A DNA stretch of 64,000 nucleotides from Escherichia phage naam: the sequence record MN850630.1. The stretch is one strand, 5' to 3'. Below are positions 1-56,360 of this stretch, piece after piece. Numbering within the stretch: the first letter of the stretch is position 1; every line of letters starts with the position of its first letter. Made by a program: the position numbers and the translations under genes. The notes under the pieces are model-generated. The model was not told where the DNA came from. It saw only the letters and a program-made list of their open reading frames with translations, and did not search any database.

Positions 1-165
1 ATTACCGATGTGCATGTTTACCACAACGGTGAAGAGGTGGACTTCCACAAACTGCCAAACGATATGCGCCACTCAATTTACAAACGTGCAGCCCGTGAAC
101 TAGAGTCCTATCTTGATGCAGCGACGACAGCAGCTGCATTTGCCGAAGAAGTGGGAGGTTTCTGA
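1..165 (+). CDS. hypothetical protein (3' fragment, gene starts left of window)
   Basis: Open frame from window edge to TGA at 163-165; stop overlaps next ATG (ATGA). Confidence 0.4.
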   Translation: MTDVHVYHNGEEVDFHKLPNDMRHSIYKRAARELESYLDAATTAAAFAEEVGGF

Positions 166-560
166 TGATTACAGGTGTGAAGATTATCCAATACCACTTA
201 ACCAAGTTGGAAGATGCTGAGAAAGAGCTTGCAGAAGTTCTGAACAGTGGATATACTTTGCTATCATGCGCCTGTTCAGACACCTACGCTGTGTGGACAC
301 TTATCCGGAAGGAAGAGCCTGCAGGGATCTTGGTGCCAAACCCTAAGATTATTAGTGAGGTGGATGACTACCCCCAAGACGGCCTGCCAGAAGGCTGGGA
401 AGTATGGGAAGGTGGTGAAAACCCTGCACCAGGTAAGTGGGTAAAATACAAACTACGTAGTGGTGCACAGTACGCTGACTACTCTGATGACCTAGACTGG
501 AGTCATTCTTCACCAGGATCGTCTGCAAGTTCATATGATATCGTTGCTTTTCAGGAATAA
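165..560 (+). CDS. hypothetical protein
   Basis: 131-aa ORF, GGGAGG RBS upstream, same strand as neighbours. Confidence 0.55.
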   Translation: MITGVKIIQYHLTKLEDAEKELAEVLNSGYTLLSCACSDTYAVWTLIRKEEPAGILVPNPKIISEVDDYPQDGLPEGWEVWEGGENPAPGKWVKYKLRSGAQYADYSDDLDWSHSSPGSSASSYDIVAFQE

Positions 561-572
561 GGAGAGAGTACT

Positions 573-1055
573 ATGTCAGATTTTATGTGGAAAGTAGGCT
601 ATGCCACTCCTGAAATGTGCGAGGCTTGCTTTGTGAAAATAGGCCGCGAGGATATCGACAAAGTGATCCTTAAGTTTCGTGATGTGGCTGTGATCGGCAA
701 CCGGGTGCTTAAGCACTTAAAGAATCTGAAGCTCACTAAAAAGAAGTTCTTCGGACTTTTCGAAGAGAAAGTTGATGCTTGGACCCATTGCATTCAGGAA
801 GCTAAATCTCACTACAGTGCTATCGTTACTCCAGAACGGGTAGCTAAGATGGAAGGATTCATCAACAGCACAGAATTTGAGTGTCTGAAAGCTGCACTTG
901 ATAGTTATCCGAAATGCCTCAAGCACTTGGACAAGTATGCAGAAAAGGATGGGGAAATGTATCTAACCCTGGACGCATATTATGAGATGCAAGAAATTTT
1001 AAATTTAGATTTGACATTGGTATCCACCGAGTACACAATAGGTATCCGGGTTTAA
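573..1055 (+). CDS. hypothetical protein
   Basis: 160-aa ORF, GGAGAG RBS upstream; followed by terminator hairpin. Confidence 0.55.
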   Translation: MSDFMWKVGYATPEMCEACFVKIGREDIDKVILKFRDVAVIGNRVLKHLKNLKLTKKKFFGLFEEKVDAWTHCIQEAKSHYSAIVTPERVAKMEGFINSTEFECLKAALDSYPKCLKHLDKYAEKDGEMYLTLDAYYEMQEILNLDLTLVSTEYTIGIRV

Positions 1056-1060
1056 CACTA

Positions 1061-1089
1061 GGCCCTGCCCGAAAGGGTGGGGCTTTTTG
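1061..1089 (+). terminator. rho-independent terminator (GAAA-loop hairpin + T-tract)
   Basis: GCCCTGCCC-GAAA-GGGTGGGGC followed by TTTTT; near-identical copy at 11197. Confidence 0.6.
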
Positions 1090-1106
1090 CATTAGGAGAC
1101 AGCAAA

Positions 1107-1871
1107 TTGAAATTTATCTACAAAGAACACTACCATAAAGGTGTTGTGTGGAGTCTATTTGACGGGTCTGGTGGTGCAGTCATTGACTGGGCAAAAGCTG
1201 GGTACCTGTGCCTGTGCTTTAATGCAGAAGGCGCTGATCACGGCAGTTATGCAGAGGTGATCACCGATCATCCCAACATTCACTATGTGGACTATTGGAT
1301 TGACCCGTGGTTCCCTCAGGAAACTTTTTGCATGTATCCGGCTCCAGACTTTATTCTTGCATTTCCTCCGTGCACGCATTTAGCGGTATCAGGTGCTGCA
1401 CATTTTAAGAAAAAGCTGGCTAAGGACCCCATGATCCAAATTAATGCTGTAAAGGATGCTCGGGTTGCGGAAGAGCTGGGAGAGATTTACGATTGCCCGT
1501 GGCATGTAGAGAATCCTGTGGGTGTTATGTCCACACTGTGGCGCAAACCTGATTACCGTTTTCACCCTTCGGATTATGGCGGGTATTTACCGGAAGATGA
1601 TGTAAACCCATGGTTTCCTGAATTTATAGCTCCACGTGATGCCTATCCAAAAATAACTTGCGGCTGGATAGGTAATGGATTTATAATCCCAGCCACAAAA
1701 CCTGTCCCGCAAATAGTTGACGCGGTTAGCGGGTATTCCATGCAACACGCCAAGCTGGGTGGAAAGAGTGCAAGAACGAAGATGATTCGAAGCCTCACAC
1801 CACGTGGCTGGGCAAAAGCCGTATTCCTAGCAAACGAGCCTGTAGTAAGGAGCAGAATTAATGGGAAGTAA
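1107..1871 (+). CDS. DNA (cytosine-5)-methyltransferase-like protein
   Basis: Motifs LFDGSGG (motif I), PPCTHLAVSG (PCQ-like, Q to T), HVENPVG (ENV); TTG start 1107 after AGGAGA RBS assumed, longest frame from 1077. Confidence 0.5.
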   Translation: MKFIYKEHYHKGVVWSLFDGSGGAVIDWAKAGYLCLCFNAEGADHGSYAEVITDHPNIHYVDYWIDPWFPQETFCMYPAPDFILAFPPCTHLAVSGAAHFKKKLAKDPMIQINAVKDARVAEELGEIYDCPWHVENPVGVMSTLWRKPDYRFHPSDYGGYLPEDDVNPWFPEFIAPRDAYPKITCGWIGNGFIIPATKPVPQIVDAVSGYSMQHAKLGGKSARTKMIRSLTPRGWAKAVFLANEPVVRSRINGK

Positions 1872-3939
1872 ATTTATGGCATCTGCATACAACCGTTTCG
1901 GTGAGCCAAACCCGAAAGCAACTAAGTATAAAAGTGGGGGAAGTGTGAAACGAGACTATCGTGATGAAAAAGAAGTTGAAACTGTAGAGACTGTTTTAGA
2001 AAATACTAAAATTGTCCCTGTCCCACAACAAAATATCGGTCTGATGGCTGCACAATATTTTGGTGTGCGATCAGCATTGTCACAAGAAGACGGTGTGACA
2101 GTCACTGCAACATATTTCCCATATTACGACCGCTACGGAAATCTGTCCGGTTTCAAAAAGCGTGACTGGACTATTCCTAAAGAACAAAGGGGCCACTTCT
2201 CCGTTGTTGGCATCGTAAAGGCCAACTCCCAGATGTTTGGTCAAAAGCTGTGTGCATCTTCCAACAACCGTAAGCAGATTAACGTTTGTGAGGGAGAAGG
2301 TGATGTTATTGCAGCATGGCAGGCTGCATATCAGATACAAGTAAAAGGGATTCTCACCAACGCTAAAGCCCCGGCAAAGGTGAAGCAGTGGGCTAAAGAG
2401 GTCCAGGACGGGATCGACGCAGTTATCAACGGTGGTGATCTGGCAGGAAAACCCTGCCTGCCTTTTGTTGGAATTAACTGTGGATGTGCAAACGCAGTAG
2501 ATACTTTTGCAAACAATGAGAAGTTTATCCGTAGCTATGGAACAGTTGTGCTGGCAATGGATAACGATGCAGCTAACGAGGTAGAGAAGCAAAAACACGT
2601 CATTAAAGGTGTCGAGGCCACGCACAATATCGCAGCATTTTTGATGGCTGATAACGTTTACCACGTAGAATACCCTGGTGAAGTAAACGACCCTGACGGT
2701 GTAAAAGATATCCGAGACATGCTGAAGGCTAAAAAGCTGGAAGATATTGTCAACATGTTCCGGCATCCTGTTAAATATGTGCCTGATGCTGTGTCGGATT
2801 TAGAAGACTTCTCTATCGAGTCTTTGCGGAAAAAGACTTCCAACGGGGTAGATATCAGCGCAGAGTTCCCAAAACTGCAAAAAATGCTAAAAGGCTTGCA
2901 CAAAGGTACACTCGTAATGCTTACAGGCCCATCAGGTGGCGGTAAAACAACCGTAGCTAAAAAACTGGAACACTGTATTGCAAGATACCTAATGGACCCG
3001 ACATGCCCGAAGGCTGATGACTATGAAGAGGATGATCGTCTATGTATGATCCATCTTGAGGAGGACCCAGAGGAAGCAATTAACTCCTTGTATGCAAACC
3101 AGTTAGGGTTTGATGTTAAAGAGTTTGTTGAAGATCCTAGCCAGTTTTTAACTGATCAAGAACACGCAGAGATTCATCAGTCATGGGCAAAAGCTGGAAA
3201 AATCAAAGTGTTCAAACATTTCGGGTCTATTCCGGTGGATGAGTTGATTACCAAGCTTAAGCAAATGGTTTGCCTGTACCATTGCCGTTATATTGTGCTG
3301 GATCACCTGTCCATGGTAATTTCAGGGCTTAATGTTAAGGATGAGCGAAAAGAACTGGACATGGCTATGACCCAACTGGCTGCGTTTTGTAAGCAGTTTA
3401 ATGTGTTTATCTTGGTGATCGCTCACCTCAAACGTACAGAGATTGTGCCTCCTAAGGACAAGGATGGTAACCCGTTACCTTTCTGGTATCCTGTGCGAAA
3501 AGAGAATTTGCGAGGATCGGCGGGGCTTGAACAGTTGAGTTGGGTAGTCATAGGTGTCGAGGCCGAAGAAATGGTGGATCGTTCTCGTGGGCGTGTCCGT
3601 CTGGTAGGTCTTAAAAACCGTCCAGCAAAAACTTTAGGTATTGCTGACACTTTAGTTATGGACCCGCACACAGGTAAGTTCCATGATGCCAGTAACTGGT
3701 ACTGGGACAAAGAAATGCAAATGTTTACAGACGGAGAAGGTGGGGAGGTTGTTTGGAGACCTCAGGCTATGTTTGAGGATCAGGAGCATGCAGTTGTAGA
3801 AACACCTATGGGCAAGGTTGTGGCTGATAAGGTTGTAACTCCTACTGTTAAGCCTGTTGACACGCAGGAAGACCTCCAGTACGATGATCCGTCCTCTGAC
3901 CATGTTCCTGGTTTTGAGGATGATGAAACACCTTTTTAA
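1861..3939 (+). CDS. fused DNA primase-helicase (TOPRIM + DnaB-like)
   Basis: TOPRIM-like EGEGD and MDNDAANE; Walker A GPSGGGKTT; Walker B IVLDHL; acidic C-terminus EDDETPF. Confidence 0.85.
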   Translation: MGSKFMASAYNRFGEPNPKATKYKSGGSVKRDYRDEKEVETVETVLENTKIVPVPQQNIGLMAAQYFGVRSALSQEDGVTVTATYFPYYDRYGNLSGFKKRDWTIPKEQRGHFSVVGIVKANSQMFGQKLCASSNNRKQINVCEGEGDVIAAWQAAYQIQVKGILTNAKAPAKVKQWAKEVQDGIDAVINGGDLAGKPCLPFVGINCGCANAVDTFANNEKFIRSYGTVVLAMDNDAANEVEKQKHVIKGVEATHNIAAFLMADNVYHVEYPGEVNDPDGVKDIRDMLKAKKLEDIVNMFRHPVKYVPDAVSDLEDFSIESLRKKTSNGVDISAEFPKLQKMLKGLHKGTLVMLTGPSGGGKTTVAKKLEHCIARYLMDPTCPKADDYEEDDRLCMIHLEEDPEEAINSLYANQLGFDVKEFVEDPSQFLTDQEHAEIHQSWAKAGKIKVFKHFGSIPVDELITKLKQMVCLYHCRYIVLDHLSMVISGLNVKDERKELDMAMTQLAAFCKQFNVFILVIAHLKRTEIVPPKDKDGNPLPFWYPVRKENLRGSAGLEQLSWVVIGVEAEEMVDRSRGRVRLVGLKNRPAKTLGIADTLVMDPHTGKFHDASNWYWDKEMQMFTDGEGGEVVWRPQAMFEDQEHAVVETPMGKVVADKVVTPTVKPVDTQEDLQYDDPSSDHVPGFEDDETPF

Positions 3940-3997
3940 TGTTTAACAAAGAGTGGGAGGGGTAGTACAACCGCCTCCCCTTTAAGGAGAACTGTAT

Positions 3998-6775
3998 ATG
4001 AGCATGTGGTCGTTCGATTTTGAGTCATCCGGTTTGCTGGAAGACCCAGATCTTTATTATCACTGCGGCCTGTTTAAAGAGCTGAATAAGAACCGTTTTA
4101 TGCTGTTCCTTCCTCTGAATGACCGCACACACTACTCCGAGGAGGATATAGAGAAGGCCAAGAACTTTATTCTGGCAAAGAAAACTCTTTATAAGGATTT
4201 TGAAGTTCGCATAGCAGATTTTTCGGAGTTGGAAGGTTGGCTTACAGGAAATTCCGACTGGTCACCAACAGCTTTGAACTGCCATAACTGCTACAGTTAT
4301 GACTTTATGCTGATGGAGAGATTATCCGGTATTCATTTTGATATGTTCCGTGATCCTAAATGTATGGGGACTATCAACGACCACCAGGTTAACCTGTTTG
4401 ATACGTTGGCGATGAGCCGAATCTTGTGGCCTGATCGCCCTTTACCAAAAGGTTGTCCGGACTCCGTATTCAACCCGGTTACTAAGAAAATGCAGCCTGT
4501 TGGTCCTCACGGCCTTATGGCATGGGGCTACGCCCTTGGTAACCAGAAAGTTCAAATTGATGACTGGCGCGATCTTCCGTTGTGGAAGTATGTGGATCGT
4601 GTATTCGAGGACGTTATCATCCAGGAGCTACTCTGGAAAGAGCTGGTAGCGGAATCAAAAGGTGTATTCTACGGCAAATCTGACATGCAGAACTTTATGT
4701 ACGATCCTGCCAAAGAGAAGCCGAAAGGGTTCAAGAAGATCACCTGGAAGAACGCATTGCGCCGGGGTATGCTGCAACACTTCCTGATGGAGCTGCAGGC
4801 CCGTCAGGGTGTGTATTTTGACATAGATGGGGCTATTGCTTTACGTGACCGTTGCGATGCTTGGATGAAAGAAATCGCTGATCGTGTTGAACCACAACTA
4901 CCTTTAAAAGAGCTGTCAATGTCTCAGCGGCCCAAGTTCCCTGAAAAGCCGTTTAACCAAGATGGGACAATCTCCAATAATGGTTGGAAATGGTTAAAAG
5001 ATAAGCTTGGCTATCCTGTGGACATGAGTGCTTTAGAGTTCAAGGCCCCGCCTAAGCGAGCATTTACCTCTACAGGAGATGTCAGTAAGATGGGGATAAA
5101 ATGGTGTGAAGAGATGGGCTGCAAAGACCCAGATAAGATGGCTGATTTCTTGAGAGGCTATATTAAGGGCACCTCCACACCACAACCTTTGCCTAAAGAG
5201 CTAATGGATCAGGCAATAAGTGATCTACAGCAGAAGCGAATGCCGGACTGCAAGATACCTATGAAAATCAGCAACCAGGACGACATTAAGCGATACCTGA
5301 TCAGTGCTGGTTGGCTTCCGACAATGTGGAGAACTAAGGATGTAACTAAAGACAGCAAGAAGAAAGCTCTACCTGATGCAGATGTTGATGCACGAGTATA
5401 TGCATATATGGACGAGCTTTTAGAGTCAGAGTATTGTGACCTGATTATCAACTTCTGGAACAAAACTGATGCTAAGTTCCAGACAACCGTGCACAAGTTC
5501 CGAAGCTTTCCTAACTCCGAAAGGATTAAAAAGGAAGTATTCGGGAAAATACGTAGAAAAGCTAGGGCACTTATTACTTCTCCGCAACTGAAAGATACTT
5601 TTGGACACCTATGTCCAAATCTTGAAAAATTGAACGGAGAGATGGCTAAAGATATCGTCTTGTGGTTATCATTGCGAAACCGCAGATCGGTCCTTGATCC
5701 AATCAAGGAGGATAAGGTTGATACTGGTCTTCTTAATCACCCACGTTTGAAGATTGACCATAAGCTTCCTGCTAAAAGCTCTGGATTAACAAACACTTCC
5801 CGACAGAAACACAGTATTTGTGCAAACATGCCTAAACCATCTCCTAAAGTGGTTATGGGTAAAGAGATGCGTAGTCTGTGGGGTGTTCCTCCAGGATACT
5901 TTGAGATCGGTATTGACGGGTCCAACTTAGAGCAGCTTATCGGGGCTTGGGGTGCCTTTGAGTTCGACAACGGCTTGTATTATGATGTTGTAAGTAACGG
6001 AGACGCACACCAAAACAACGCCGAGGCATATACAAAAGTAGCAGGCAGAGAGGTATCTCGTAACGACGGTAAACCTATCACGTATGGGGTTATGTACGGG
6101 GCACAAAAAGACAAAGTTGCAGACATGCTGGATATCTCCCCAGAGTTGGGACAAAGGGTAATTGATGCACTTTGGGATGCCAACCCTGGTCTTAAGGGGC
6201 GTAAAGAAGATCTGGAGAAATTCTGGGAAGCAACGGGTAAGAAGTTTATCTACTCTTTTGATGGTCATGCTATCTGGACCCGATCTAAACACTCTTTACT
6301 TAATGCATACCAACAGAATGGTGGTGCATCGTTGTGTGACTTAGTTGGGATACTCATGCACCACCAAATGGTGAAGCGTGGGTGGTACGATGAAGGTGTT
6401 CGTCGTATTATTTATTACCATGACGAATATCAGCTTCAAGTCCCTGACACACCTAAGTATAAGACTGTGTACACCTTCGACACAATTGAAGAACTGGAAG
6501 CATTTAAGGCAGAGCAGGAGTCCAAACTTCATGTGTTCGACGGTCATAAGTACAAAAAGGCACGCAAGGATGAGGACGGAAACGAAGTGGTTGACAGAGA
6601 CGGAAACACGGTGTACGATCCTATCCTGAACGATGACGGAAAGCTTGAACTTATCTGGAGCCCTGTGGGTGAAATGGTGGTGCATTGCTTCTGGCAAGCT
6701 TCTAAAATGATGGGCGTCCCGTTTCAGATCACAGGTGAATACCTGTGTGGTCGTAATTGGGGTGATTGTCACTAA
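3998..6775 (+). CDS. DNA polymerase, family A, with 3'-5' exonuclease domain
   Basis: 925 aa; exo motif FDFESSG; PolA motif B K..YGVMYGAQ; motif C YYHDEYQL; AAGGAG RBS. Confidence 0.9.
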   Translation: MSMWSFDFESSGLLEDPDLYYHCGLFKELNKNRFMLFLPLNDRTHYSEEDIEKAKNFILAKKTLYKDFEVRIADFSELEGWLTGNSDWSPTALNCHNCYSYDFMLMERLSGIHFDMFRDPKCMGTINDHQVNLFDTLAMSRILWPDRPLPKGCPDSVFNPVTKKMQPVGPHGLMAWGYALGNQKVQIDDWRDLPLWKYVDRVFEDVIIQELLWKELVAESKGVFYGKSDMQNFMYDPAKEKPKGFKKITWKNALRRGMLQHFLMELQARQGVYFDIDGAIALRDRCDAWMKEIADRVEPQLPLKELSMSQRPKFPEKPFNQDGTISNNGWKWLKDKLGYPVDMSALEFKAPPKRAFTSTGDVSKMGIKWCEEMGCKDPDKMADFLRGYIKGTSTPQPLPKELMDQAISDLQQKRMPDCKIPMKISNQDDIKRYLISAGWLPTMWRTKDVTKDSKKKALPDADVDARVYAYMDELLESEYCDLIINFWNKTDAKFQTTVHKFRSFPNSERIKKEVFGKIRRKARALITSPQLKDTFGHLCPNLEKLNGEMAKDIVLWLSLRNRRSVLDPIKEDKVDTGLLNHPRLKIDHKLPAKSSGLTNTSRQKHSICANMPKPSPKVVMGKEMRSLWGVPPGYFEIGIDGSNLEQLIGAWGAFEFDNGLYYDVVSNGDAHQNNAEAYTKVAGREVSRNDGKPITYGVMYGAQKDKVADMLDISPELGQRVIDALWDANPGLKGRKEDLEKFWEATGKKFIYSFDGHAIWTRSKHSLLNAYQQNGGASLCDLVGILMHHQMVKRGWYDEGVRRIIYYHDEYQLQVPDTPKYKTVYTFDTIEELEAFKAEQESKLHVFDGHKYKKARKDEDGNEVVDRDGNTVYDPILNDDGKLELIWSPVGEMVVHCFWQASKMMGVPFQITGEYLCGRNWGDCH

Positions 6776-40015: not shown

Positions 40016-40303
40016 CTACCAGGTCACTGTCAAGTAGGCAACTGTGTTATTTTTCTCCGGAGAGATGCCAACAACATCCACCTGCAGACCTCCTGCCCTC
40101 AAATCCCCAACAATGTGTGGGAAGTAGTCTGAGAGGTGTGATGGGAGATTTATCGAAAATCCACATCCCAGAAAGCCTGCTAACGCTTTATTTTGTATCT
40201 CCCCAACAATCGCATCATAAATAGAGTTAAGCTCGTCAGGAAGCGTTACAGGACGTTTTAGCGCTAACTGGTGCAACTTGTCCTTAGCACTCATTTTCAT
40301 TTC
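40016..40303 (-). CDS. hypothetical protein
   Basis: Internal ATG chosen to limit overlap with MTase gene. Confidence 0.45.
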   Translation of the reverse strand, partial: EMKMSAKDKLHQLALKRPVTLPDELNSIYDAIVGEIQNKALAGFLGCGFSINLPSHLSDYFPHIVGDLRAGGLQVDVVGISPEKNNTVAYLTVTW

Positions 40304-40830
40304 AAGTCTGCCTCTGGTGGTGCCAACCACATAAATGGCGGCAAGTCTAGACGGTTTTTCTTGTCCCATACAAAATATGCATATGCCTGCCCATCCGTTC
40401 TACCATTAGATTGGAATGACGGACGCTTAGATATTGTGATCACAGTGGTAGGTGCATTATCAAGCCACCATTCAAATCTGGCCTTGCTTTCCAGAAAATT
40501 AAGACGCAAAAGCATAATAACTACGTCGGCATCTTTCAACGCCTTGTCCACAAACTCACGAGCCAGGCTGTACGGCGGGTTGGTGATAATACAGTCAACA
40601 TGGTTGTATTCTGTATTCAGATAGTCAACACCTTCTTGGATTTCTCCCCATGCAGATCCTAACGGCATACGGGAGTAGAACACACCTGAGGCACTATTCC
40701 TGCAAGGCTCTAAGTAGGTCCAGTCTTCTGGGAACGGAATAAGGTAATACAGCCCTTCTGCACACCACTCCGGTGTCACATACTCATCGTAGGCGTTACG
40801 TTGTTCATCAGGTTTTCTAGCACAAGTCAT
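40297..40830 (-). CDS. DNA N6-adenine methyltransferase-like (small amino-MTase)
   Basis: Motif ITNPPYS (NPPY catalytic motif), YVTPEW N-terminal motif. Confidence 0.6.
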   Translation of the reverse strand: MTCARKPDEQRNAYDEYVTPEWCAEGLYYLIPFPEDWTYLEPCRNSASGVFYSRMPLGSAWGEIQEGVDYLNTEYNHVDCIITNPPYSLAREFVDKALKDADVVIMLLRLNFLESKARFEWWLDNAPTTVITISKRPSFQSNGRTDGQAYAYFVWDKKNRLDLPPFMWLAPPEADLK

Positions 40831-45828: not shown

Positions 45829-47967
45829 TTATTTACTCAACGGACAACAGTCTACATTCCCAACATGTTTAACACGTTCGATAACCTCTGCTTGTTTACC
45901 TGTGTTATACGGCCTACTGTTCGGGCTGGAGAGATAGCCAGACACTCTTCGGATCACTGAGATATATTGTTCATCGTGGCATCCGCACGCAGGGCAGCAG
46001 AACCCTTTAGCTGTTGCACTGAACTCACCAGAGAAACCACACTTGAGACATTTATCCACAGGTTGGTTAATACCAAAATACATAATGTGTTTATACCCGA
46101 AGTCAACAAGAGCCTCTAAAGCATCAAGGTTGTTTTTCAGGTTAGGTGTCTCTACGTATCCGATGTTGCCACCGGAGGAGATCATAGCAAAACCTTCCTC
46201 ATACTCCCACTTATCAAAAGGAGAGCTATTGATCCATACTGGCTGATGGAAACTGTTGGTGAGATATTCATGCTCGTGCTTTAACACTTCTGGATATTCA
46301 CGATCCAGACAGGTTGCAGCTTTATAGCATAGACTCTCAGAAGGAGTGCCGTACAAGCTAAATGCTAGTCTACTTTCCTTCTTGTATCGCTCACAAGCAT
46401 CTCTCATGTGCTGAAGGATTCCAAGAGCTAAAGCCTTGTCACCTTCTCTGCCCAAAATCTGACAGGTTTCATACACACCAATGTACCCAATGCTGATGGA
46501 AGCGTACCCGTCATAGAAGAGTTTATCAATACTTTCTTCAGGATCCAGGCGAGCAAGAGCGCCTTCACACCACATGATGGGGTTCTGCCCTGACTTTGTT
46601 CCTTTTAGACGGTTAACCCTTACAAGGTGAGCCTCGTATGCAAGATCCAAGTATTCGTCAAGAACTGCAAAGAAATCAACACCTTCCGTCTTAGCTTTTG
46701 CCGCAATCATTGGCAGGTTAAGGCTAACAACGCCTAAGTTAAATCTGCCAAGGTATTTCTCCTCGCCTGTTTCCAAGTCATTGTATTTGCTAAGAAAACT
46801 CCGGCAACCCATGCTCGTTACTTTGCCATCTGTCGAGCCTGTCACTTTTCTATTTAGTGGTACAGATACGAAGTCAGGATAGATACGTTCTGCACAGCAT
46901 TCCAGAGCTAATCGTTTCAAATCATAGTTAGGATCTCCAGGGTTCATGTTGACACCCTCTTCTAGGAAGAACAGCACTTTAGGGAACACAGGTGTGATCC
47001 GTTCTTCACCAAGACCCATTTTGTGGACTTTCAAGTAATTTTTGGTAATCATTCTACCAAAGACCGAGGTATCCAGTCCTAAACTTAATGTGATGAATGG
47101 AGTTTGCCCGTTGACAGAAGTTAACGTATTGATTTGATAGAGCAAAGTCTGCATGCTGTCAAATACGTCTTTATCTGTCATTTGCATTGCAACAGTCTCA
47201 GCATCTGGCAACCAATGTTCCTGGCAAAATTTAAGGTTCTTCTCATAGGTCGCTTCAGCATACTGTGCCAGATAATGATCAATATGGCTCATAGTCTGAC
47301 CCCCATATTGAGCACTAGCTACTGCACTAGAGATTTGGCTAAGGATTGTTGTTGCAACCCCTATTGACTTAGGCTTACTGACATGGGCGTTACCAATGTT
47401 GAATCCGTTTTCCAACATATCTGGATAATTTACCAAACAACAGTTTGTTAACGGACTGATCAAGTAGTCAAGATCATGCACATGGATGAAGCCTCTATTG
47501 TGCTCTTCTGAGACACGGTCTGGCAGGATCTGTGTTGATGCAAGGTGTTTGCTAAGAATACCTGCAAGCAGGTCGCGATGAGTGTGTACATGATTAGTAG
47601 GCTTATTTGCGTTTTCTTTTGTAAATTCATCACAAGTTCGATCCAAGAAGCCACTAATATCTGCAAGCAGTTTTCCACCTGCCTCTCTGTTATTATCTCT
47701 TGTCTGTCTATACTGGATGTATTCTCTGGCTGCACATTTTAAACCCATATCCATAAGAGCATCTTCAACAAGGATATGGATATTTTTTACAGAGATCGTG
47801 CACTGGTCGGTTGGTAGATTGTTAGCAACAACTTCATTAACCGCGCAGGCGATCCGGTAAGCTTCTTCTTCAGTATGCCCAGACTCAAGTAAGGCGGACT
47901 CTGCCGCCTTGATCACCTTAATTCCGTTATAGAACTCTTCTCTACCGTCCCGTTTTACAACTTTCAC
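45829..47967 (-). CDS. nrdD: anaerobic ribonucleoside-triphosphate reductase
   Basis: 712 aa; C-terminal glycyl-radical motif RVSGYL and Zn-binding CxxC pairs. Confidence 0.85.
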   Translation of the reverse strand: MKVVKRDGREEFYNGIKVIKAAESALLESGHTEEEAYRIACAVNEVVANNLPTDQCTISVKNIHILVEDALMDMGLKCAAREYIQYRQTRDNNREAGGKLLADISGFLDRTCDEFTKENANKPTNHVHTHRDLLAGILSKHLASTQILPDRVSEEHNRGFIHVHDLDYLISPLTNCCLVNYPDMLENGFNIGNAHVSKPKSIGVATTILSQISSAVASAQYGGQTMSHIDHYLAQYAEATYEKNLKFCQEHWLPDAETVAMQMTDKDVFDSMQTLLYQINTLTSVNGQTPFITLSLGLDTSVFGRMITKNYLKVHKMGLGEERITPVFPKVLFFLEEGVNMNPGDPNYDLKRLALECCAERIYPDFVSVPLNRKVTGSTDGKVTSMGCRSFLSKYNDLETGEEKYLGRFNLGVVSLNLPMIAAKAKTEGVDFFAVLDEYLDLAYEAHLVRVNRLKGTKSGQNPIMWCEGALARLDPEESIDKLFYDGYASISIGYIGVYETCQILGREGDKALALGILQHMRDACERYKKESRLAFSLYGTPSESLCYKAATCLDREYPEVLKHEHEYLTNSFHQPVWINSSPFDKWEYEEGFAMISSGGNIGYVETPNLKNNLDALEALVDFGYKHIMYFGINQPVDKCLKCGFSGEFSATAKGFCCPACGCHDEQYISVIRRVSGYLSSPNSRPYNTGKQAEVIERVKHVGNVDCCPLSK

Positions 47968-52485: not shown

Positions 52486-53469
52486 TTAACCTTTCACGAA
52501 GTGGTTATTAAGCAGTTGTCTGTGCTGAACCCACCCACAAAAGTTGGCAGACCAGAATTTACCATCACGATCTTGATGGGTTACACCTTCCTGCCAAGTA
52601 CTGATGTCTTGTGTGATTTCACATGAAGACAGGTAGTAGTTTAAACGTTCCATTGCGTTATCGTGATCCATAGGTGTTGCCTGGTGCTCGTAAGGGCTTG
52701 CATGAATACGATCCCCACCAATCAATTTTTTAGCCACACTGTCTGCCTTTTCAAACGTGCTGTCAATATTTCGATAAGATACTTGTGCACAGCAACTAGC
52801 ACTGATAGACAGAGCTTCTTTAGTATCGAGAATGCAGAGCTTTCCTTCTGTGTCACGTACAGCGTAGTTAAACTCCCCGTCCAAATAAACGTGCTCTACA
52901 TATGGAGTGTGCCATTGACCCGGTTTAAGGATTTCAGGAGTGCTATTCACAAGAGCCTCCCACATACAATTAGCCAACATCTGAATCGTAGGATCCGCAT
53001 CGTGCCAGCAACGGAGGTGGAAAAAATTATTCCACTCGGTGCTTGTTACAACTGTTTTCATGCGTTGAAAAGGCTCCACTAAGCGGTTACATACTTGCTT
53101 ATGGTAACCAGCAAGGGCGAACTTCTCTGCATGCCAAGCGGCGTTTTTTGCAGCTTCTTTCCAAAATTCTTCAGGAGTTAACTCCATGTCAGTGTACTCT
53201 ACACGGATCTTTTGATCGTGTTCCCCACCATCTTCCATCCCTCGCTTATTTGCACCGAAGCGAACTGGCATTGCCGGATTCTCCACAATCTGTTGCAGCA
53301 TCTTGCCGACAGGAACTGCACGGGAAGACATGGCGTTTCGGCTGAATACTCGATGCGTCATAAGCTCTGAGTGAATAATTCGAGGATACTCTAGCTCAAA
53401 AGTGGTGATGCGCTTACCTTTCTCGGAAATGCTGTCAGCAATGATCTTTGCAGTGCACAGTTTTAGCAT
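52486..53469 (-). CDS. thyX: ThyX-like protein (putative flavin-dependent thymidylate synthase)
   Basis: THRVFSRNAMSSR resembles ThyX RHRx7S motif; nucleotide-metabolism neighbourhood. Confidence 0.55.
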   Translation of the reverse strand: MLKLCTAKIIADSISEKGKRITTFELEYPRIIHSELMTHRVFSRNAMSSRAVPVGKMLQQIVENPAMPVRFGANKRGMEDGGEHDQKIRVEYTDMELTPEEFWKEAAKNAAWHAEKFALAGYHKQVCNRLVEPFQRMKTVVTSTEWNNFFHLRCWHDADPTIQMLANCMWEALVNSTPEILKPGQWHTPYVEHVYLDGEFNYAVRDTEGKLCILDTKEALSISASCCAQVSYRNIDSTFEKADSVAKKLIGGDRIHASPYEHQATPMDHDNAMERLNYYLSSCEITQDISTWQEGVTHQDRDGKFWSANFCGWVQHRQLLNNHFVKG

Positions 53470-55090: not shown

Positions 55091-55549
55091 TTAGAAGTTT
55101 GTTTTTACACGTCCCTTTTCATCAACTTCGTTGTTAGCTAAAAGCGTTACAAAGTCTGTGAAACGGACATGAAGAACTCTTTTCTTATCAAGGTATCCTA
55201 AAGCCACCCCTGAGAAATTTAGCATCAAAGGGGCTAAAGAAGCTCTAGCACTGAAATGCTGTTGTTCTACCCTTCCAACACCCTTAGTATAGGATGGGTT
55301 GAGATTGTAAGTTCTGAATCCAAGTTTTGTTGGGGCTTTAGAATTAAAAACAACTTTGTAGCGTTTCTTACTCAACTTATGCTCCAGGATAAGTATTCCC
55401 TTATCGCCCTTGATAAGTTGAAAATCTGTAAAGTGCTCTTTTAAGACGAAAGGTAGTGCCAGTCCCATTGCCTGCCCCCTTTGTACCGCTGTCTCACCAA
55501 AAGCTTTCGCATCAGTGAGTTCTTTGGTCAAGTCTATGCTTTTGATCAT
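55091..55549 (-). CDS. hypothetical protein
   Basis: 152 aa. Confidence 0.5.
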   Translation of the reverse strand: MIKSIDLTKELTDAKAFGETAVQRGQAMGLALPFVLKEHFTDFQLIKGDKGILILEHKLSKKRYKVVFNSKAPTKLGFRTYNLNPSYTKGVGRVEQQHFSARASLAPLMLNFSGVALGYLDKKRVLHVRFTDFVTLLANNEVDEKGRVKTNF

Positions 55550-56360
55550 ACCTGGTCTCCAAAATGTATTGTAGTTCTTTCTTACCTATACTCTTCATTC
55601 CGGCAGTCTTACCTGCTTCTTCTTGAAAAGAAGAATAGCATTCAGCAAACACTCTGTCAACACCGTCAACTAAAGATTTTATGAAATATGTCGATTCTTC
55701 AGATTTTGGGTCATCATCCTCCAATACTTTTCCAGCATTATACCCAACACGTCTTACACAGAAGTCGTAGTCATCTGGAGTGCTAAAAGAAAATAACTTA
55801 TTCTCTCCAATCTCTACAGGATCCCTATTACACGCCTTTTTCTCCCAAATTTGGAAAACACACGGCACGTCATAAGGTTTGCCATTAAGTAAAAACGAAT
55901 TCTTAGGGCACCTTTCGCTGTAGACAAGGTGCATCGACATGTCCAATTTGTTTGCAAAAAATATTTTTTCAAATGTCCGTGGCAAGATGAAGGCTATGGC
56001 CCCTCCAAGCTCTAGCAATGATGCACAATGGTTGAAGAATTTGCAAGCTAGAGATGAATTCTTGCCAAATGGTGGGTTACCTATGAAGACATCTGCCTTG
56101 GGGTGCACCTCCAAGAAGTTTGCCTGAATGCACGGTGTTGGCCCTTCAAATTCAGGATCTGGTACTAAATCGTACGACAGTATCTCTGAAAATAGTTTTG
56201 AAAAAGAACCCCTCCCAGCAGAGGGCTCAACGTATGCACAATTCCCATAGTTATCTTTTACTTTACCAACAAGATATTCTGCATACTCAGGGTTTGTGTA
56301 ATATTTGTCGTTGGACTCTTTCTTGCTCAAAGTGCCTCCAAAAGGAAAAGGGAGGCGCAA
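55512..56360 (-). CDS. DNA amino-methyltransferase (N6-adenine or N4-cytosine)
   Basis: Motif I EPSAGRGSF, motif IV GNPPFG, N-terminal YYTNPE. Confidence 0.55.
   Translation of the reverse strand: MRLPFPFGGTLSKKESNDKYYTNPEYAEYLVGKVKDNYGNCAYVEPSAGRGSFSKLFSEILSYDLVPDPEFEGPTPCIQANFLEVHPKADVFIGNPPFGKNSSLACKFFNHCASLLELGGAIAFILPRTFEKIFFANKLDMSMHLVYSERCPKNSFLLNGKPYDVPCVFQIWEKKACNRDPVEIGENKLFSFSTPDDYDFCVRRVGYNAGKVLEDDDPKSEESTYFIKSLVDGVDRVFAECYSSFQEEAGKTAGMKSIGKKELQYILETRYDQKHRLDQRTH

Follow-up and report, generated by a model that had tools for sequence, protein, structure and literature searches.

A compact orphan 'Dcm-like' C5-methyltransferase gene in the replication module of an rV5-like Escherichia phage

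The gene at positions 1107..1871 of the stretch of Escherichia phage naam analyzed here (64,000 nucleotides of MN850630.1, hereafter the window) encodes a protein of the C5-methyltransferase type, with a catalytic Pro-Cys, the glutamate of an ENx motif and membership in PHROG 757. An initial annotation of the window had proposed the C5-methyltransferase type, and the feature is confirmed as real and as correctly placed. We consider it likely that the product is an active, stand-alone, AdoMet-dependent DNA C5-methyltransferase that forms 5-methylcytosine (5mC) at a specific site in phage DNA, with narrow protection from restriction as the likely result. The gene is already known, being annotated as a 'Dcm-like C5 cytosine methyltransferase' in more than 100 near-identical phage genomes. 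Furthermore, the function of the family has been published (5mC formation and the triggering of retron Ec86/Eco1), so that the finding has little discovery value in itself.

The gene and its genomic setting

The window comes from a Vequintavirus (rV5-like) genome. Over positions 1-6000 it shares 98.6% identity with Escherichia phages ECO111 5-P, rV5_ev147 and inoa, and at least 80% of this segment is covered in 112 deposited records. Sixteen 'Campylobacter phage' records with C. jejuni as the named host (for example, MG065661.1) are also about 98% identical to this E. coli rV5-like sequence; their host label looks doubtful, perhaps the result of contamination or mislabelling. The features at the start of the gene are as follows.

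1060..1090, plus strand: terminator-like, GC-rich hairpin (1060-1085; 11-pair stem with 7 GC pairs) and T-run
1094..1099, plus strand: ribosome-binding site AGGAGA, 7 nt 5' of the TTG start, read directly from the sequence
1107..1871, plus strand: compact orphan 'Dcm-like' C5-methyltransferase gene, TTG start at 1107, TAA stop at 1869-1871, 254 aa, PHROG 757

Four observations support the TTG at 1107 as the start: the AGGAGA site; the hairpin, which together with its T-run closes the upstream gene (573..1055) and which spans the alternative GTG start (1077), arguing against the use of that GTG; a homologue with 80% identity, whose first residue is at the position equivalent to 1107; and the GenBank annotation of phage MaxBurger, which gives an identical 765-bp frame. 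At its other end, the methyltransferase gene overlaps the ATG (1861) of a primase/helicase gene, and a DNA polymerase gene comes next, which places the methyltransferase within the replication module. Because of the overlap, it would share a transcript with the replication genes. The idea that it belongs to a restriction-modification system was rejected, given that the neighbors in the window are replication genes. Bacterial genomes of many phyla also encode relatives, at 293 loci in all. At the two loci inspected, the relative has RecT, an exonuclease, another methyltransferase or an integrase as its neighbor, a prophage context rather than one of restriction-modification.

The initial annotation had counted three methyltransferases in the window, and the two further genes, with NPPY and NPPF motifs, are indeed present, both on the minus strand.

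40297..40830, minus strand: second methyltransferase gene, 177 aa, IITNPPYSLA; PHROG 799, E 8e-66
55512..56360, minus strand: third methyltransferase-like gene, up to 282 aa, FIGNPPFGKN; PHROG 5172, E 2e-129

The product of 40297..40830 has weak Pfam matches to PF05869 (Dam) and PF13651 (EcoRI-methylase). The product of 55512..56360 also matches PHROG 799 (E 2.7e-13), a Pfam scan of it gave no match, and its counterpart in the MaxBurger annotation has a shorter start (273 aa). MaxBurger labels the counterparts of both genes 'putative N6 adenine methyltransferase'. In addition, MaxBurger carries a fourth methyltransferase gene, bas54_0070 (L001:4521-5846), which encodes a PHROG 799-like protein of 441 aa of the putative N6-adenine type. 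In close relatives a gene of this kind lies about 150 nt upstream of window position 1, and judging from these sequences, the methyltransferase genes of the source genome probably number four rather than three.

A 327-aa thymidylate synthase of the ThyX (flavin-dependent) type is encoded at 52486-53469 on the minus strand; only its residues 23-178 match PF02511 (C-terminal two-thirds), and about 150 C-terminal residues carry no domain match. An anaerobic ribonucleotide reductase is encoded at 45829-47967, also on the minus strand, as one unbroken ORF of 712 aa. In MaxBurger a homing-endonuclease gene splits the ribonucleotide reductase gene (bas54_0178/0179) into two pieces, which the annotation joins; by comparison of the sequences, the intron and homing endonuclease seem to be absent from the gene in the window. 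ARAGORN, run on the whole 64 kb, found no tRNA genes.

Family membership and motifs

The gene, its motifs, its family membership and its predicted fold are observed here. Residues 2-251 of the protein match positions 5-226 of the 247 in the PHROG 757 'DNA methyltransferase' profile (E 5.3e-87). By tblastn, relatives occur in 1505 of 50,697 phage records, among them Vequintavirinae, Drexlerviridae, Klebsiella weberviruses, and phages of Salmonella, Vibrio and Arthrobacter; identity is at least 95% in about 115 rV5-like records and reaches 99% across many independent isolates. A collection of 5.8 billion proteins contains 3555 relatives, and a family profile finds 2054 clusters (50% identity) at E values up to 0.001. 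Nearly all of these are 200-260 aa in length, and the family is possibly among the most compact of the C5-methyltransferases. A few longer relatives, of 400-1400 aa (P0240, P0256, P0270 and BFVD A0A6J5SE15), are fusions in which the compact methyltransferase forms the C-terminus or is joined to a helicase-type protein.

Within the protein, the following elements can be distinguished.

1155..1175, plus strand: motif I, LFDGSGG, residues 17-23; AdoMet-binding loop after strand beta-1 (residues 13-17)
1365..1394, plus strand: motif IV, PPCTHLAVSG, residues 87-96
1503..1523, plus strand: motif VI, HVENPVG, residues 133-139
1632..1661, plus strand: PRDAYPKITC, conserved basic element before strand beta-7, residues 176-185
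1674..1769, plus strand: residues 190-221 (GFIIPATKPVPQIVDAVSGYSMQHAKLGGKS), the sole segment able to house a recognition element
1788..1811, plus strand: RSLTPRGW, near-invariant C-terminal motif, residues 228-235

The first three of these had been read in the initial annotation, in a protein of about 255 aa, and all three are found where it placed them. Their order, I (FDGSG, residues 18-22), IV (PPC, residues 87-89) and VI (ENP, residues 135-137), is that of C5-methyltransferases. An alignment of 31 diverse family members reveals that G20 and S21 of motif I are conserved in at least 90%, while P87, P88, C89, E135, N136, P137 and most of RSLTPRG are invariant, as are D178, Y180, K182 and T184. 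Cys89 (tgc, 1371-1373) is the predicted catalytic nucleophile, and Glu135 is predicted to be the general acid for cytosine N3. PRDAYPKITC is a candidate counterpart of motif VIII. RSLTPRGW resembles, by eye, either motif IX (RxLTPRE) or the motif X region of DNMT3, and RSLTPRG is present in 115 of the 120 best homologues.

Thr90 (acg, 1374-1376) takes the place of the usual Gln after the catalytic Cys, and the resulting PCT had been taken as a sign of divergence. It is instead the rule of the family: 118 of the 120 best homologues have PPCT (105 PPCTD, 8 PPCTH and 5 PPCTN), and nearly all have ENP. DNMT3B likewise lacks the Gln, having PCNDLS, and a profile search against solved structures aligns PPCTDLAV of the family with SPCNDLSN of DNMT3B. 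Thus, a residue other than Gln at this position has a well-studied active precedent.

A match to a C5-methyltransferase profile had been suggested as a check, and here the result is divided. For the window protein alone, Pfam and NCBIfam scans give no methyltransferase match, with PF00145 absent even at E 10, and a phmmer search against the PDB returns noise and a marginal match to motif I of M.HaeIII. At the level of the family, a match does appear: PF00145 is hit at E below 1 by 21 of the 31 members, three of which exceed 22 bits, the Pfam gathering cut-off, and the fold described below agrees. These matches are confined to profile positions 4-94, corresponding to motifs I-IV, and the motif I region of the homologues aligns from position 4. 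There is no profile match past PF00145 position 94 for motifs VIII (QxRxR), IX (RE) or X (GN), and a profile of the C-terminal half of the family, compared with the PDB and solved structures, finds no C5-methyltransferase.

The K42 orthologue and the role of methylation

The activity of a family member is known from work on retron Ec86. Wang et al. isolated mutants of the Drexlerviridae phage K42 that escape this retron, and every escape mutation falls in the 711-bp dcm gene (bioRxiv 10.1101/2023.08.16.553469). Expression of K42 Dcm is toxic only when the retron is present, and LC-MS detects high levels of 5mC in msDNA with the wild-type enzyme but not with the mutant C82A/E128A/K175A/K176A (bioRxiv 10.1101/2023.08.16.553469). 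Of 35 phages sensitive to Ec86, 34 encode Dcm; the gene is dispensable in K42, whose escape mutants lose it and remain viable (bioRxiv 10.1101/2023.08.16.553469). Later papers treat it as established that a phage cytosine methyltransferase methylates msDNA and so activates retron Eco1.

K42 is 95% identical to KarlJaspers/Bas06 (bioRxiv 10.1101/2023.08.16.553469). The KarlJaspers gene bas06_0055, also 711 bp and annotated 'Dcm-like C5 cytosine methyltransferase', encodes a protein 54% identical to the window protein over 235 residues (E 2e-86); residues 82, 128, 175 and 176 of the KarlJaspers protein are precisely Cys, Glu, Lys and Lys. The enzyme studied by Wang et al. is thus a PPCT orthologue of the window protein, in which Cys89 corresponds to C82, Glu135 to E128 and K182 to K175. 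Formation of 5mC and triggering of the retron were shown by others and for the orthologue only, and would hold for the window protein by analogy; its own activity, its target site and its role are what we infer.

A substitution at the fourth mutated position raises the question of whether the window copy is catalytically dead and serves instead as a DNA-binding or decoy protein. Ile183 replaces K176, a Lys chosen in K42 Dcm as a substrate-binding residue, and the lack of a PF00145 match to the window protein might be read in the same way. However, every family-invariant residue is kept, including Pro-Pro-Cys, ENP and RSLTPRG, and the 99% identity across independent isolates also makes a dead enzyme very unlikely. 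The window protein retains FPPCT, ENP, PRDAYPK, KLGGKS and RSLTPRG, together with the size typical of the family (about 210-260 aa).

An active enzyme would be expected to work as follows. The target cytosine would be flipped out, as by other C5-methyltransferases; Cys89 of PPC would attack C6, Glu135 of ENP would protonate N3, and AdoMet would donate its methyl group to C5. The loop of about 30 residues at 190-221 would read the sequence, in a layout closest to that of the DNMT3 catalytic domain. The enzyme would produce 5mC at a specific site in the DNA of the phage and, as a side effect, in that of the host. Protection from particular 5mC-sensitive restriction enzymes would be the likely benefit, and the cost would be exposure to methylation-sensing defenses such as retron Ec86/Eco1.

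The initial annotation went further, presuming that the methyltransferases confer extensive self-methylation as an anti-restriction measure. Such protection appears to be narrow at best, and a broad anti-restriction role for the window methyltransferase is doubtful. In the BASEL study, Vequintavirinae were 'exceptionally susceptible' to the restriction-modification systems tested, without effective protection, and among Drexlerviridae there was no pattern relating methyltransferase genes to restriction resistance (PMC8594841). Webervirus FZ10 reportedly has adenine and cytosine methyltransferases of its own, the cytosine enzyme belonging either to PHROG 757 or to another family, and FZ10 DNA is still cut by HaeIII, BamHI, EcoRI and EcoRV; all that these digests show is that some cytosines are left unmodified. 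The cutting indicates that methylation is site-specific and that any protection is narrow. Searches of the literature yielded no methylome or restriction-digest data specific to the DNA of Vequintavirus.

These observations also raise the possibility that cytosine is methylated in DNA for a purpose other than anti-restriction, such as marking phage DNA for packaging, for replication or for the timing of its genes, or perturbing the host. The sensitivity of Vequintavirinae despite their four methyltransferase genes speaks for such a role, as do the missing Drexlerviridae pattern (both PMC8594841) and the identity of at least 95% in about 115 rV5-like records. Yet the BASEL panel was without 5mC-sensitive enzymes at likely sites, for example EcoRII, and the K42 escape mutants remain viable after losing the gene. 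Orphan phage methyltransferases are, moreover, generally protective. A main role outside restriction is thus unlikely, though it deserves some weight, and narrow protection is preferred. Whatever the benefit, the gene may expose rV5-like therapeutic phages to retron Eco1 and to type IV restriction, which matters for predictions of host range.

Fold, target recognition and comparison with known enzymes

The structure predicted for the window protein (pLDDT 90.5) is a class I (Rossmann) methyltransferase fold, most like those of C5-methyltransferases. Foldseek ranks DNMT3A/B first, with E values of about 1e-6, and E values of 1e-21 to 1e-27 are obtained with predicted structures of viral proteins that carry the name 'site-specific DNA-cytosine methylase'. 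Comparison of the predicted structure with individual enzymes gives the following scores.

DNMT3B (194 residues aligned): 13.3
CmoX carboxymethyltransferase (8yf3): 12.6
CP-933R prophage methyltransferase (3g7u): 12.0
DNMT3A: 11.9
M.HhaI: 10.8
M.HaeIII: 10.6
DNMT1 and M.MpeI: 10.4-10.5
DNMT2: 9.3-9.7

Modification at the nucleotide level, by a dCMP methylase, was rejected because this Rossmann methyltransferase fold is not of the thymidylate-synthase type and because the thymidylate synthase of the window is of the ordinary ThyX type. The suggestion in the initial annotation that the enzyme might act on a nucleotide or make a non-canonical modification is not supported, since the 54%-identical K42 orthologue raises 5mC in msDNA by LC-MS.

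The closeness of CmoX in fold does suggest a related alternative, in which a group other than methyl is transferred, for example carboxymethyl from host Cx-SAM, to give 5-carboxymethylcytosine or further hypermodification. E. coli supplies Cx-SAM, and 5mC was the sole product assayed for the K42 orthologue. However, that assay gave a clear rise in 5mC (bioRxiv 10.1101/2023.08.16.553469), and DNMT3B, a true methyltransferase, is the better structural match. CmoX itself (Synechococcus phage S-B43, PDB 8yf3) is a protein of 333 aa that uses Cx-SAM via Arg350 and is accompanied by a phage cmoA and a ligase, and CmoX candidates are defined by the SPPC motif, by Arg350, an Arg at the position of Asn304 in M.HhaI, and by the neighboring phage cmoA and ligase. 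The family studied here has FPPC rather than the SPPC signature, and no CmoA homologue is found in the 64-kb window of the genome of about 136 kb (best tblastn E 3.3), although the host has cmoA. An Arg is also carried by the motif X region of DNMT3. Transfer of a group other than methyl is consequently given very little credence, and methylation remains the preferred reading.

The initial annotation remarked on how little room there is for a target-recognition domain, and the structure agrees: only about 30 residues, 190-221, could serve. They lie between strand beta-7 (184-189) and two C-terminal helices, without regular secondary structure and with lower pLDDT. Their entropy, 1.4-1.95, is above that of the flanking motifs; the other variable internal segment is 64-77. 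The loop occurs in two forms. G(Y/F/W)SxQ(H/Y) is found in the majority of the 120 homologues and in the window protein (GYSMQH), and (D/S/G)NPGW in about 23 of the 120. A missing recognition domain would be explained if the substrate were not duplex DNA at all, but RNA or tRNA, as for DNMT2, or else DNA that is single-stranded or folded into a hairpin, with replication intermediates and msDNA as examples. We regard a substrate of this kind as improbable, and methylation at a specific site in phage DNA as the better account.

Which site this might be cannot be read from the name. The label 'Dcm-like' implies CCWGG specificity, and nothing here supports CCWGG. Even for K42 Dcm, that specificity was assumed from the name 'Dcm' rather than mapped, and was probed only by mutation of the msDNA stem (bioRxiv 10.1101/2023.08.16.553469). 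The host in that work was the dcm-positive strain MG1655, in which msDNA is low in 5mC without the phage enzyme (bioRxiv 10.1101/2023.08.16.553469). Thus, either the host Dcm misses msDNA or the phage enzyme differs in specificity, two explanations that the paper does not separate. By hhalign, the family matches E. coli Dcm over just 26 columns around motif IV, with a probability of 0.4, a match too weak to place motifs VIII-X; with similarity confined to motif IV, the name is silent on specificity. The 131 CCWGG sites in the window (observed/expected 0.87) are neither avoided nor enriched and, like the counts of other palindromes, are uninformative in this respect.

As a separate observation, some sites are scarce in the window: RCCGGY is present 4 times where 17 are expected, GAGCTC 4 times where 12 are, and CTAG at an observed/expected ratio of 0.46. 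Counts of CCWGG, GATC and GAATTC are near expectation. The scarcity of RCCGGY, GAGCTC and CTAG may reflect restriction-site avoidance.

A tentative proposal, which we hold with less than even confidence, is that these enzymes of about 230 aa are the smallest working DNA C5-methyltransferases, that they read DNA through a minimal loop in the manner of DNMT3, that in place of CCWGG they target a motif that is shorter or otherwise different, or stem-loop DNA, and that the GYSxQH and DNPGW forms differ in specificity. If the two forms do differ, this could explain the lack of a pattern between the gene and restriction resistance, and also which phages trigger Ec86.

Comparison with characterized enzymes places the window protein apart from the classical bacterial ones. 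M.HhaI, M.HaeIII and E. coli Dcm (PF00145) have PCQ, whereas the window protein has PCT. Bacterial type II C5-methyltransferases are 320-470 aa in length with a recognition domain of 80-100 residues, in contrast to 254 aa and a loop of about 30. The catalytic domains of DNMT3A and DNMT3B, eukaryotic and of about 285 aa, have the PCNDLS that the PCT of the phage family resembles, but they are only 12-17% identical to the window protein, come linked to regulatory domains and act on CpG as oligomers. The phage enzyme possibly reads DNA as a DNMT3-like oligomer as well. The closest known system is K42/Bas06 Dcm, likewise a compact (236 versus 254 aa) orphan member of PHROG 757 from a virulent coliphage, with PPCT, ENP and RSLTPRG. 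It comes from a Drexlerviridae siphovirus rather than a Vequintavirus myovirus, lacks about 10 residues present at each end of the window protein, and has DNPGW in place of GYSMQH in the loop before KLGGKS. Because the loops are of different types, the specificity of K42 Dcm is not transferable to the window protein.
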